Positions 7,490 to 45,164 of a stretch of DNA of 64,000 bases are shown piece after piece. This DNA is from an uncultured Candidatus Saccharibacteria bacterium (GTDB lineage: Bacteria; Patescibacteriota; Minisyncoccia; Phycocordibacterales; UBA2100). Numbering within the stretch: position 1 is the stretch's first letter; every line of letters starts with the position of its first letter. The notes under the pieces are model-generated. The model had not been told where the DNA came from, made no database searches, and worked only from the letters and a program-made list of their open reading frames with translations. The stretch is taken from contig CAZZHR010000003.1 of the NCBI GenBank assembly GCA_964654205.1, positions 56,839-120,838 on the forward strand, read 5' to 3'. A program made the translations under genes and the position numbers.

Positions 7490-7537
7490 GTGTATATGCT
7501 GCCCGGTCGCGAACGCGACCGGGCAGCATCCCTCCCC

Positions 7538-15937: not shown

Positions 15938-16480
15938 ATGGCGACGGCCGTGTTTGGCGGCGGGTGTTTTTGGTGCACGGAGGCGGTGTTTGCGATGCTG
16001 AAAGGGGTATCGAAAGTCGAGCCCGGCTACGCCGGAGGTAAGATGGAGAACCCGACATACGAGCGAGTTTCTGAGGGAAACACCGGGCATGCCGAGGTCA
16101 TCCGGGTAACCTACGACCCCGCTGAAATTACATACGAAGACCTTCTGACGGTCTTTTTTGGCTCGCATGACCCGACGACGCCCAACAGGCAAGGTGCCGA
16201 CGTGGGGGAGCAGTACCGCTCGGTGATTCTGTACATGACTGACGAGGAGAAGGCGACGGCCGAGCGAGTGGCCAAAGGTATTCAAGATTCGCTTACCGAC
16301 GGCACTCGCGTCGTTACACAGATAGTGCCACTTGATACTTTCTACCCCGCCGAGGATTATCACAAGGAGTACTTCAAGAACAACACGAGTGCGCCCTACT
16401 GCCAACTCGTCATCGAACCTAAAATCGAGAAGGTGAAAAAACGCTTCTCCGAACTCGTCCGTCCCTCACTTGGAGGTTGA
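15938..16480 (+). CDS. msrA: Peptide methionine sulfoxide reductase MsrA
   Basis: GGGCFWC active-site motif. The stop codon (TGA) lies in the loop of the first REP-like palindrome. Confidence 0.9.
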   Translation: MATAVFGGGCFWCTEAVFAMLKGVSKVEPGYAGGKMENPTYERVSEGNTGHAEVIRVTYDPAEITYEDLLTVFFGSHDPTTPNRQGADVGEQYRSVILYMTDEEKATAERVAKGIQDSLTDGTRVVTQIVPLDTFYPAEDYHKEYFKNNTSAPYCQLVIEPKIEKVKKRFSELVRPSLGG

Positions 16481-16491
16481 ACCTCCAAGTG
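16467..16491. repeat. REP-like perfect palindrome copy 1 (CACTTGGAGGTT-G-AACCTCCAAGTG)
   Basis: 25-nt perfect palindrome read directly from the sequence; loop TGA supplies the msrA stop codon. Confidence 0.9.
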
Positions 16492-16504
16492 TGATACTTG
16501 GCTC

Positions 16505-17125
16505 ATGAGGGTAGAGCTAGCGGACGAAGAACATTATCACGTTTTCAATCGCGGCGTTGATAAGCGAACGATATTCGCGGATGCGCACGACATCGATAGA
16601 TTCCTCACCAGCTTACGCATGTTCAACTCGACCGAGCCTATCGGAAGCATCTACGAGCATCGATTCAATGAGAAACAGTCGGGCGAATCGATTGTAGATG
16701 TGATTGCGTACTGCTTGAATGTAACCCATTACCATCTGATTCTCCGGCAGACGACGGGGCGTGGAATTCAACGATTCATGCAGCGGCTCGCTACGGGCTA
16801 CACGATGTACTTTAACGAGAAGTACAAGAGGACGGGCGCGCTCTTCCAGGGTAGGTACAAGGCGGTGCACATCTCTTCTAACGAGCAACTGCTACACACG
16901 AGCGTCTACGTTAATCTAAACAACCAACTTGGAGGTTCAACCTCCAAGTTGGGCGCTTCGAGTTGGGGAGAGTACCGGGGCAGTGACAATGGGTTCTGCA
17001 AGAAGGATATAGTGCTGGAGCAGTTCGCAACGGTCCAACAATACGAGCTATTTGCGAAGATGTCAGCGGCCGAGATTGCAGAGCGTAAGCGAGCGGAAAA
17101 AGAAATGCAATGGCTTGGAGGTTGA
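16505..17125 (+). CDS. IS200/IS605-family-like Y1 HUH transposase, REP-associated tyrosine transposase (RAYT)-like
   Basis: HYHVFNRG N-terminal motif, HUH motif THYHLIL, and ...ALFQGRYKAV...SVYVNLNN in the position of the RAYT WQxRF.../YIYINP tyrosine helix. The gene is flanked and interrupted by identical palindromes. Confidence 0.7.
   Translation: MRVELADEEHYHVFNRGVDKRTIFADAHDIDRFLTSLRMFNSTEPIGSIYEHRFNEKQSGESIVDVIAYCLNVTHYHLILRQTTGRGIQRFMQRLATGYTMYFNEKYKRTGALFQGRYKAVHISSNEQLLHTSVYVNLNNQLGGSTSKLGASSWGEYRGSDNGFCKKDIVLEQFATVQQYELFAKMSAAEIAERKRAEKEMQWLGG
16926..16950. repeat. REP-like perfect palindrome copy 2 (AACTTGGAGGTT-C-AACCTCCAAGTT), in-frame inside the transposase ORF (encodes QLGGSTSKL)
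   Basis: Same arms as copies 1 and 3, but the loop is TCA instead of TGA so the reading frame stays open. Confidence 0.9.
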
Positions 17126-17133
17126 ACCTCCAA
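17114..17133. repeat. REP-like palindrome copy 3 (CTTGGAGGTT-G-AACCTCCAA[A])
   Basis: 20/21 nt identical to copies 1/2; loop TGA supplies the stop codon of the transposase-like ORF. Confidence 0.85.
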
Positions 17134-17529
17134 ATGCGTATGAACGATGCAGAGTTCGAACAACTGATAGAAGAAGGGTACGAAAAGCTGCCTGAGTGGG
17201 TGCGGGAGAAGATACAGAACGTTGCCATACTTGCAGAGGACGAGCCGAGTGAGGAGGTGCGAGAGAGGGAAGGTCTTGGCGAACACGAGACGCTTCTCGG
17301 CTACTATCAAGGCATCCCACTCACGGAGCGCGGTGAGCACTACGGGGTCGGCATTACAATGCCCGACACCATCACGCTCTATAAGTGGCCTATCGAGCAA
17401 GCGGCGCTGGACGACGGGCTGCCGGTGGCGCAAGTAATCGCCGAAACAATCTGGCACGAGTTTGCGCACCACTTTGGTATGGACGAGCACGAGGTGCAGT
17501 TTCGCGAGAGGCAGCGAGATGGAAGGTAG
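17134..17529 (+). CDS. DUF1025-type zincin-like metallopeptidase family protein
   Basis: MRMNDAEFEQLIEEGYEKLPEWVREKIQNVAILAEDEPSEE...HEFAHHFG (HExxH) matches the DUF1025 family; the start codon directly follows palindrome copy 3. Confidence 0.7.
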   Translation: MRMNDAEFEQLIEEGYEKLPEWVREKIQNVAILAEDEPSEEVREREGLGEHETLLGYYQGIPLTERGEHYGVGITMPDTITLYKWPIEQAALDDGLPVAQVIAETIWHEFAHHFGMDEHEVQFRERQRDGR

Positions 17530-36174: not shown

Positions 36175-36247
36175 GGGCCCTTAGCTCAGTTGGTAGAGCG
36201 CCACATTTGCAATGTGGATGTCAGCGGTTCGAATCCGCTAGGGTCCA
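36175..36247 (+). tRNA. tRNA-Ala (anticodon UGC)
   Basis: Cloverleaf: acceptor GGGCCCT/AGGGTCC with G3:U70 Ala identity pair, D-loop AGCTCAGTTGGTAGAGC, anticodon loop TTTGCAA, T-arm GGTTCGAATCC, discriminator A. Followed by CC but no encoded CCA. Confidence 0.85.
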
Positions 36248-44406: not shown

Positions 44407-45018
44407 TTACTTACGACTTTCCAGTGCGCTCTTGATGGTCTCCGGGTCGGCGTACTCGAGCTCGCTCCCGGTCGAAAGTCCGCGCCCCAACTTGGTTATC
44501 CGAACAGATGAGTGACCTCGTAGGTCACTCATCTCTTGTTCGAGACGTGACGCGGTCGCGTCGCCCTCGGGATTCGCGGGAAAGGCGAGTATGACCTCGA
44601 AGCCATCGGCGTGGCGACTTCGTAAGTTGCTAATGCGCTGAATGAGCTGCTTGATACGGAGACCAGCGGCCTTCTCAGACGCGAGCGATATGGTGCCGCC
44701 GAGCACGAAGTAGAGGCCGCGGTAAGTTCCGCTCCGCTCAAGCGCCGCAAGGTCGGAGTCGGACGCGACGACCGCAAGATAGGTGGTATTGCGTTCAGGG
44801 TTGGAACATATGGAACAGGTTTTGCCATTCCCCGCATGGTACCGCATGCAGCTCTCGCATTGCCGCACGCCGCTGCCGAGCTCCTGAATCGCATCGATGA
44901 TCTCGCGACGCAGCGATGGGGAACTGCGCAAGAGGTATGCGACGAAGCGCCCCGCCTGCCTCGGGCCTATACCTGGGAATTTTTCAAAAATTCGGGCGAG
45001 CCGCTCGATTGCATCCAT
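44407..45018 (-). CDS. recR: Recombination protein RecR
   Basis: HhH N-terminus (...FPGIGPRQAGRFVAYLL), C4 zinc finger (CESC...CSIC), Toprim domain. Internal ATG preceded by TATACT (leaderless-type start). Confidence 0.85.
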   Translation of the reverse strand: MDAIERLARIFEKFPGIGPRQAGRFVAYLLRSSPSLRREIIDAIQELGSGVRQCESCMRYHAGNGKTCSICSNPERNTTYLAVVASDSDLAALERSGTYRGLYFVLGGTISLASEKAAGLRIKQLIQRISNLRSRHADGFEVILAFPANPEGDATASRLEQEMSDLRGHSSVRITKLGRGLSTGSELEYADPETIKSALESRK

Positions 45019-45060
45019 CGATGTAGTATACAGAATCAATATTCCGGTGTTACAGCATTA

Positions 45061-45096
45061 CTCCTGTAAACTCACCAATTGGTGAGTTTACAGGAG
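45061..45096. promoter_or_regulatory. 36-nt perfect palindrome CTCCTGTAAACTCACCAA|TTGGTGAGTTTACAGGAG in the divergent recR / small-membrane-gene intergenic region
   Basis: Read directly from the sequence; both flanking genes point away from it, so a terminator role is unlikely and an operator or structured RNA is more plausible. Confidence 0.5.
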
Positions 45097-45164
45097 TGAG
45101 ATTGTTTAGTCCAAAAGAGTCGTGTGCGACACGCACGTTGTACATAACGTGATATCGTAGATAT

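Follow-up and report, generated by a model that had tools for sequence, protein, structure and literature searches.

Why should a gene for a small transposase-like protein be bracketed, and in addition interrupted, by perfect copies of one short palindrome? The question is raised by a locus at positions 16467-17134 of a 64-kb stretch (hereafter the window; 64,000 nucleotides) of contig CAZZHR010000003.1, from an uncultured Candidatus Saccharibacteria bacterium (GCA_964654205.1). Here an open reading frame (ORF) of 206 amino acids (aa) on the + strand (16505-17125) encodes a Y1 protein of the HUH type that resembles TnpA_REP, and three copies of the palindrome, which we call P1, P3 and P4, lie before, within and at the end of it. 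The locus probably represents a REPtron-like system (REP, repetitive extragenic palindromic sequence) from a branch of the Y1 HUH family that is specific to the Candidate Phyla Radiation (CPR) and akin to TnpA_REP and the REP-associated tyrosine transposases (RAYTs), in which a single-copy gene is associated with its cognate 21-nt palindrome in fixed slots.

The sequence TTGGAGGTT-N-AACCTCCAA has three exact matches in the window, at 16470-16488, 16929-16947 and 17115-17133, with G, C and G as the respective centre bases, and none is expected by chance (0 matches in 100 shuffles), which confirms the three copies reported in a preliminary description of this DNA. No fourth copy was found in the 64 kb, even with two mismatches allowed in the 15-nt core. 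In their full extent, and without assignment to a strand, the copies are P1 (16467-16491; CACTTGGAGGTT-G-AACCTCCAAGTG, a perfect palindrome with a 12-bp stem, in the upstream slot of the gene), P3 (16924-16952; CCAACTTGGAGGTT-C-AACCTCCAAGTTGG, likewise perfect, with a 14-bp stem and in frame) and P4 (17114-17134; CTTGGAGGTT-G-AACCTCCAA(a), with a perfect stem of 9 bp). Folded as single-stranded DNA (ssDNA) they reach energies of -11.8, -14.7 and -7.5 kcal/mol, respectively, corresponding to z-scores of -5.7, -7.1 and -3.7 relative to shuffled controls. As had been described, the loops of P1 and P4 supply stop codons, that of P1 being the TGA of msrA (16478-16480) and that of P4 the TGA of the Y1 ORF itself (17123-17125). 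P3 is translated in frame as Q141-LGGSTSK-L149; the C at its centre yields TCA (Ser) and keeps the frame open, and a G in its place would make a TGA stop. The earlier account was correct about the frame, the TCA loop and the peptide QLGGSTSKL, but it had placed this copy inside the catalytic-tyrosine helix: the encoded peptide begins two residues past the motif Y135-V-N-L-N139, where the predicted structure has a loop of low confidence. One further slot, P2, is empty in the window (16667-16690, + strand; aa 55-62, NEKQSGES) and is recognized from the alignment, the slot counts given below and a dip in predicted confidence at aa 51-60. A scan against Rfam, of this region at permissive thresholds and of the whole window, placed no RNA family over the hairpins and returned as its sole match a tRNA-Ala at 36175.

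Several lines of evidence support the identification of the ORF as a Y1 HUH protein of the RAYT/IS200 superfamily, as proposed in the preliminary description. The Pfam profile PF01797 (Y1_Tnp) matches aa 60-137 over profile positions 37-119 of 121, with a score (27.6 bits, E 3.3e-6) that exceeds the gathering cut-off of 23. The HUH motif is H75-Y76-H77 (16727-16735, + strand), preceded by T74, and the catalytic-tyrosine motif is Y135-V-N-L-N139 (16907-16921, + strand). In a 26-sequence alignment of the family (A1), H75, H77, Y135 and N139, i.e., the HUH pair, the tyrosine and a polar ligand at +4, are invariant, as is N137. The AlphaFold2 (AF2) model of the 206-aa protein has a predicted local distance difference test score (pLDDT) of 88.4, with dips at aa 51-60 and 141-150, which are the two hairpin-coded stretches (P2 and P3). 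Its best fold match in the Protein Data Bank (PDB) is the complex of E. coli TnpA_REP with a REP hairpin (4er8_A; E 1.6e-5, TM-target 0.67), followed by the TnpA proteins of IS608, ISDra2 and IS200; these matches came from fold comparison alone, a search of PDB sequences with the family profile having returned none. No helix-turn-helix (HTH) domain was detected with Pfam. Homologues are numerous, with 1868 at E <= 1e-3 in a collection clustered at 90% (the 120 among the matches listed are full-length) and 1083 clusters at 50% identity reached by the family profile at E <= 1e-30. Phage, plasmid and viral collections held no close relatives and yielded only distant Y1 proteins of 24-31% identity.

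For 80 metagenome loci with homologous genes the layout was checked in the DNA sequence, and slot occupancy was scored in 72 of them. Each gene is associated with one lineage-specific palindrome that occupies up to four fixed slots: P1 ends some 12-20 nt 5' of the start codon, P2 falls at about aa 57-62 and P3 right behind the catalytic-Tyr motif, both in frame, and P4 is at the stop codon or just 3' of it. Two or more slots carry an identical arm in 70 of the 80 loci. Occupancy ranges from 34 (P2) and 40 (P3) to 50 (P1) and 55 (P4) of the 72 loci, and the most frequent combination, P1+P3+P4, is that of the window. Contrary to the earlier impression of an unusual, compact single-locus version, the window locus is typical of a CPR branch that is under-described, and not a one-off.

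The unit is constant at 21 nt (seven codons), in the form CTTGG-N11-CCAAG, in 156 of about 190 hairpins, and the apparent 'loop sizes' differ because the extent of central pairing varies, not because the unit changes in length. At least 35 distinct apical arms were distinguished (e.g., the foreign variant CTTGGCGGTT-C-AACCGCCAAG). Right after YVNLN, the aligned proteins show peptides such as LGGSTSK, LGSSTPK, LGDSVSK, LGHSVSK and LGSSASK, and the peptide is frequently repeated in the variable loop around aa 58 and at the C-terminal end. Compensatory double changes occur at 10 of the 11 stem positions and, the hairpins having been pre-selected for perfect stems, they illustrate diversity and are not proof of pairing. 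A search free of that bias, anchored on the constant feet, recovered 212 units at the genes versus 19 in 579 kb of other sequence; in the apical part of these units the pairs are Watson-Crick in the overwhelming majority, and most exceptions are of a kind other than G-T. A structure acting at the RNA level was considered and rejected, both on account of these non-Watson-Crick stem positions and because the inferred transcription start is downstream of P1 (see below).

Gene and palindrome vary together. All occupied slots of a gene hold identical copies, the copies differ between lineages and between paralogs, and where diverged paralogs reside on one contig (L127, L145, L146, L150 and L198), each has its own palindrome in the equivalent slots. 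Sharing of the arm declines steeply with protein identity, from 100% at identities of 80% or more to 16% at 65-80%, 6% at 55-65% and 2% at 45-55%. Among the close relatives L152, L167 and L179, the centres of P1 and P3 have been altered in parallel, and the 'empty' P2 slot of this clade retains an equally long, non-palindromic stretch. Furthermore, L159 has one imperfect unit in six slots and L189 has one in three, each time in identical form, which points to copying and not to independent selection for pairing. As a separate observation, the identical 19-nt palindrome of the window is used by Y1 genes of just 45-50% protein identity (L001, L045, L072, L105 and L087, hosted by Niyogibacteria, Saccharibacteria and other CPR groups), and much closer relatives use other arms, which means that arms from a limited set are switched recurrently, that conservation is extreme or that transfer has been horizontal.

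The upstream copy is probably built into the promoter of the gene, a claim based on a family-wide test of geometry with internal controls. In the window, the candidate sigma70-like promoter (16470-16498, + strand) comprises a -35-like TTGGAG (16470-75), a spacer of 17 nt, an extended-10 TG (16490-91) and the -10 hexamer GATACT (16493-98), which ends 6 nt before the ATG at 16505. The geometry TTGGNN-17-TAnnnT recurs in the family: in 36 of 57 loci the best -10-like hexamer follows the left-arm TTGG at exactly 17 nt, the distance from the end of the -10 to the ATG is 6 nt in 31 of the 57, and the right foot, ...CCAAGTG, provides the extended-10 TG in 45. A -10-like hexamer at the exact spacing accompanies 38 of 58 gene-facing P1 copies against a background of 2.8%, and in the controls (i.e., reversed P1, P4, internal and dispersed copies) the figure is 0-5%. 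GATACT is kept in the related locus L203 although the spacer between P1 and the ATG is just 54% identical there. Because this geometry leaves no space for a ribosome-binding site, and because the N-terminus (MRK...) is conserved from residue 1 on, the mRNA is probably leaderless and starts at the ATG.

The preliminary description had called the palindrome REP-like, and this characterization gains support from its dispersal, together with its position around and within the gene and its co-variation with the gene lineage. In a species-level genome collection, at least 119 stretches contain the exact palindrome of the window. The hosts among the matches listed are almost all metagenome-assembled genomes (MAGs) of CPR bacteria (Paceibacterota, Saccharibacteria, Niyogibacteria, Moranbacteria, Yonathbacteria and others), and the handful of matches outside the CPR is compatible with chance. 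The Y1 gene is also present in just 15 of 120 loci (the 119 stretches among the matches listed, plus L120, a copy of the window locus), and some gene-bearing genomes have stand-alone copies on other contigs (e.g., JBBUBU01, DOAO01, JACROR01 and CAZOFV01). Among the matches listed, a second core lies within 80 nt of 32 of 111 copies, and 28 of those 32 pairs are inverted, as in REPINs (REP doublets forming hairpins); also among these matches, 47 of 97 stand-alone copies lie within long ORFs, read as LGGSTSK or LEV(E/Q/K)PPS, and none supplies the stop of a long ORF.

The genuine host genes of such in-ORF units encode a class-I aminoacyl-tRNA synthetase (aaRS), LigA, ArgRS, TsaD, UvrB and DUF4015. 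Alignment shows a doublet of 14 aa inserted in the UvrB of L069 (1959-4124) that is absent from the UvrB of the window itself, and alignment to unit-free copies reveals clean insertions in TsaD, in DUF4015 (L081) and in the class-I aaRS (L054); in the LigA (L029) and ArgRS (L116) ORFs the unit is present in frame. In the TsaD genes of two genomes (L048:2308-3600 and L049:1528-2697), units are found at one site, as a doublet in one and a single copy in the other.

Three further features of the dispersed copies can be recorded here. Complementarity often extends beyond the conserved 23-nt core by way of copy-specific flanks (L098:7130, L055:7211, L038:3228, L037:7841), as it does at P1 of L138 and at P4 of L123 and L186; among the matches listed, 31 of 105 copies have three or more extra pairs (1.6 expected) and 16 have five or more (0.1 expected), which suggests that units inserted at the centre of palindromes already present or that the palindrome has grown. 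Some intergenic copies show the order A-run, hairpin, T-run and so resemble bidirectional terminators. Lastly, in MAGs of Elusimicrobia or without classification (L039:4683-4718, L078:1621-1656, L053, L097 and L110), the window palindrome abuts a second hairpin, which shares the apical part, has a different foot (CGGAGGTTCAACCTCCG beside TTGGAGGTTGAACCTCCAA) and may belong to a related repeat family outside the CPR.

The history of the locus can be read from its neighbours. Upstream lies msrA (15938-16480, + strand; Pfam PMSR, 208.8 bits), whose last four codons (SLGG) and TGA stop fall within P1, and downstream a Zincin_1 gene (17134-17529, + strand; 80.3 bits), whose ATG abuts the 3' foot of P4 and which we regard as a neighbour outside the system; it is also present in L203. 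L203 and L204, JGI contigs of a related organism, have the gene order FUR, Zip, YibE_F, lysS, msrA, Y1_Tnp, Zincin_1, AKR (aldo-keto reductase), tyrS, which is the order of the window: besides lysS, msrA and the Zincin_1 gene, the window has an ORF matching the aldo-keto-reductase gene of L203 at the equivalent place and a further ORF where L203 has its tyrosyl-tRNA synthetase gene. The Y1 protein of L203/L204 is 68% identical to that of the window, and in L203 the identical three slots are filled by a palindrome of the window type with centre bases G, C and G. Between the window and L203, nucleotide identity is 0.96 in P1, 0.90 in P3 and 0.91 in P4, as compared with 0.76 in msrA, 0.75 in the Zincin_1 gene, 0.68 and 0.54 in the 5' and 3' parts of the Y1 gene, and 0.54 in the spacer from P1 to the ATG; the palindromes are thus the best-conserved part of the locus. 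Because synteny and palindromes are both kept at 68% protein identity, the system looks old at this site, vertically inherited and strongly constrained, and does not have the appearance of a recent arrival. The suggestion that the element might be very recently active or else inactivated finds no support in these data, nor in the catalytic residues, which are intact.

The same comparison bears on the C-terminus of msrA, for which the preliminary description had asked whether the gene normally ends without the LGG extension. This proves to be so: 18 orthologues end in ...ELVRQ, ...ELVKQ or similar, without the SLGG tail, and msrA of L203 has a TAA stop directly before P1. Judged from these alignments, the tail in the window is a lineage-specific read-through into the P1 hairpin. 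Homologues of msrA with 80-88% identity carry the names Candidatus Paceibacterota or Kaiserbacteria, which places the source of the window among the CPR (Patescibacteria) bacteria. The closest msrA relative, L201 (GCA_964594735.1, from the same sample as the window), lacks the Y1 gene at the syntenic site, and no remnants of the palindrome were found in this gene-less locus. In place of the Y1 gene, between msrA and the Zincin_1 gene (L201:4625-6302), there are a 258-aa ORF without a Pfam domain and a methyltransferase, and an additional 76-aa ORF lies between lysS and msrA; the interval from msrA to Zincin_1 seems to be a local hotspot of gene turnover. An insertion reading 'GGSTSS' in msrA of L201 was considered as a hairpin-coded peptide and rejected, the DNA not being palindromic.

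If the locus is indeed a REPtron-like system, its parts could work together as follows. The protein would bind the hairpin form of the palindrome on ssDNA and would cut and rejoin it at the foot, as TnpA_REP and the TnpA proteins of IS200/IS605 do, a mode of action suggested by the co-variation of gene and palindrome and by the predicted fold. Cutting and rejoining would copy the unit to new sites and would also homogenise the gene's own copies. P1 extends across the -35 to the extended-10, and binding of the protein or extrusion of the hairpin there would likely switch the gene off by stopping transcription, resulting in autoregulation. P3 (and P2 in relatives) would be tolerated as the code for a flexible surface loop, and P4 would mark the 3' end of the gene, serving in the window also as its stop codon. 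The SLGG tail of msrA may then be a side effect, arising when this gene lost its own stop and came to read into P1.

Several observations weigh against this reading. The remaining 63 kb of the window hold no copy of the palindrome, which may therefore not be dispersed within the window's own genome; even in the flanks of homologous genes, copies of the lineage palindrome are few (9 in 536 kb, or 0.017 per kb), a density so low that zero extra copies in the window is unremarkable. The protein scores only 19.6 bits against the cut-off of 80 for the NCBIfam RAYT equivalog (NF047646). The residue before the HUH motif is T74 in the window and N in at least 90% of the family, and the class-2 motif Y---NP is not matched: the window has Y-V-N-L-N-N and the family YVNLN[ND], with N at +4 present and P at +5 absent. 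No GT[AG]G guide tetranucleotide was found 5' of the stem, the feet being (A)CTTGG...CCAAG(T), and the cleavage site is therefore not inferable by analogy. The P1 site was missed by a generic promoter scan, because TTGGAG matches the -35 consensus at three of six positions (TTG). Finally, the mechanism of homogenisation may be enzyme-driven or recombinational, and passive tolerance alone fails to explain why the P2 and P3 slots are kept in one reading frame.

A bolder interpretation, and in our judgement an improbable one, is that the in-gene hairpins form a self-referential circuit of control and maintenance, in which the substrate of the enzyme is also its promoter, autoregulation senses single-stranded or extruded DNA, and P2 and P3 are self-editing sites. 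The enzyme might then recopy the current hairpin variant into the slots, flip the unit or excise segments between hairpins; a flip of C to G at the centre of P3 would turn the Ser codon TCA into a TGA stop, and protein sequence and expression would be coupled directly to the state of the DNA target. Were this true, the system would offer a minimal, experimentally tractable model of what RAYTs do. The flip to a stop predicts truncated homologues ending in LGG* at P3, and the short homologues inspected have no such ends; this idea was rejected.

Two less elaborate explanations would each dispense with part of the proposed REPtron-like system. The locus could be domesticated or a relic, its palindromes just cis-regulatory DNA or RNA (a promoter or operator, a stabiliser or terminator at the 3' end of the mRNA, a brake on translation) that is no longer mobilised here. 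The lack of off-gene copies in the window, the integration of P1 in a conserved promoter, the 3'-terminal position that P4 takes up in 55 of 72 loci, the long, syntenic residence of the locus and the T74 of the window where the family has N all speak for such a relic. Yet the catalytic residues are all kept across the family, units have inserted in housekeeping genes of related genomes, and continued copying is required to account for the concerted changes of P1 and P3 and for the imperfect units repeated without change in up to six slots; a role confined to RNA is made unlikely by the same two points for which RNA-level structure was rejected above. We therefore consider domestication unlikely. 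Conserved synteny, which might be taken as family-wide evidence for it, was rejected in that capacity: it is limited to the close relatives L203 and L204, and just lysS recurs (3 of 80 loci).

Alternatively, the whole gene might transpose as a minimal autonomous insertion sequence (IS) of the IS200 type, about 670 bp long, with P1 and P4 as the hairpins of its left and right ends. The tight bracketing of the gene by hairpins suits such an element, as do the membership of the protein in the IS200/IS605 TnpA superfamily, the variable neighbourhoods of most homologous loci (lysS being nearby in only 3 of 80) and the absence of the gene from the syntenic site of L201. Against this, the gene occurs once in the 64 kb, and where related loci have paralogs on the same contig, these are strongly diverged and carry different hairpins instead of being near-identical. 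The class-1 motif Y---Q is absent (PMC6006769), and the end hairpins are identical perfect palindromes that also occur inside the gene, so that recognition of them would cut the IS apart. Retention of synteny and palindromes at 68% protein identity speaks for long residence, and the phage, plasmid and viral collections searched yielded no close relatives. Transposition of the whole gene is accordingly unlikely. As to chance or an assembly artefact behind the three palindromes, this can be given next to no credence, in view of the shuffling result and of the recurrence of the arrangement in an independent Logan assembly of the window locus (L120), in the JGI contigs L203/L204 and in dozens of homologous loci.

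How the REPtron-like system relates to those already described is best judged against the survey of Quentin et al. (2018), who divided the Y1 proteins into 12 subclasses and described REPtron arrangements (PMC6006769). With the REPtrons of the E. coli yafM type (subclass 2.2; 4er8), the CPR branch has in common the Y1 HUH fold, a low-copy gene placed between its own hairpins (P1 and P4), a separate hairpin family for each paralog and, in related genomes, REPIN-like inverted doublets (PMC6006769). It departs from them in a protein that falls below the NCBIfam RAYT cut-off, in a tyrosine motif of the form YVNLN[ND] instead of Y---NP, in a hairpin that is a perfect 21-nt palindrome with very few off-gene copies (about half of them within ORFs), and in the placement of hairpins in fixed in-frame slots of the gene, one of them within the promoter.

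REPs lying in frame inside the tnpA_REP gene have been reported for subclass 2.4 and some members of 2.8 (PMC6006769). Those of subclass 2.4, known from Cyanobacteria and Bacteroidetes, leave the frame intact, are situated in predicted peripheral loops and exist besides flanking copies; the proteins have the motifs NH[IFV]H, WQ and YIxNNP, and the REPs are of the 'double-foot' form GT[AG]G...C[TC]AC (PMC6006769). The CPR genes likewise carry in-frame hairpins in loop regions (P3 in the window, P2 and P3 across the family), but P2 (about aa 58) lies before the HuH motif (aa 75-77) and P3 (aa 141-149) after the Y motif (aa 135-139), the protein motifs are (N/T)HYH, LFQG and YVNLN, and the feet are CTTGG...CCAAG. 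In the flavour of its motifs the branch resembles subclass 2.1 (group 1 of Bertels, TIRYT-like), which has NH[YF]H, FQ, Y[IV]HLN- and an SS past the tyrosine helix (SSW at 152-154 in the CPR family). Subclass 2.1 proteins, in contrast, end in an HTH/DnaA_C-like domain, are 238 aa long in the median and lack associated REPs (PMC6006769), whereas the CPR protein has 206 aa, no detected HTH and cognate palindromes. With the TnpA proteins of IS200/IS605 it shares the fold, the HUH/Tyr chemistry and a very small gene unit bounded by a hairpin on either side; it differs in having N and not Q at +4 (and hence no Y---Q), no tnpB, one copy in the window and diverged paralogs, and in using one perfect palindrome at both ends and inside the gene, as opposed to distinct imperfect subterminal hairpins.

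The dispersed units, for their part, resemble intragenic REPs and the Rickettsia palindromic elements (Ogata et al. 2000, as cited in PMC3733652). Di Nocera et al. (2013) described stop codons supplied by REPs, REPs in uvrA/B, ligase and tRNA-synthetase genes, and REPs in target palindromes (PMC3733652); in-frame repeats in uvrB, DNA ligase and tRNA synthetases, repeat-supplied stops and larger target palindromes are points of likeness to the CPR units. Those REPs, however, are tagged with GTAG or CGTC and belong to Proteobacteria and other phyla, while the CPR unit is untagged, 21 nt long and explicitly linked to a co-varying Y1 gene with fixed slots. In-frame REPs in RAYT genes, REP-supplied stops and intragenic REPs are therefore all previously published (PMC6006769, PMC3733652), and the features that had seemed unprecedented at this locus are not so. 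What is distinctive in the CPR branch is the combination of subclass-2.1-like motifs, the lack of a GT[AG]G foot, slots outside the interval from HuH to Y, a very low copy number and the promoter copy P1. A search of the literature for work linking RAYTs or REPINs to the CPR or Patescibacteria found nothing relevant.

For the window alone the result is modest, the locus being a typical, long-resident member of its family. The role of RAYTs, the spread of REPs and the uniformity of REPs are nonetheless standing questions on which the CPR branch bears, since it presents a stripped-down system: an enzyme of 206 aa, a perfect palindrome of 21 nt and a handful of copies per genome of about 1 Mb. 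With the hairpin recorded in up to four slots of the gene, co-evolution, homogenisation and regulation become readable from sequence, and the promoter-in-hairpin geometry provides a concrete and testable model of autoregulation. Through insertions in UvrB, TsaD, an aaRS and other proteins, the units reshape essential proteins of genomes that are already minimal. There are also consequences for annotation, in the form of LGGSTSK or LEVEPPS inserts, false stops and extensions such as the SLGG tail of msrA.

Some minor observations concern the window itself. It contains other long perfect palindromes unrelated to the present one, at 45060-45097 (38 nt, no loop, 19-bp arms), and unrelated hairpins at 7496-7529 (16-bp arms) and 44506-44534 (13-bp arms). 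The stop of msrA and the start of the Y1 ORF (16478-16507) are in one reading frame, eight sense codons apart, so that read-through would give a fusion protein; the frame is shared in L203 as well, and the match, which has a chance of one in three, is probably coincidental.

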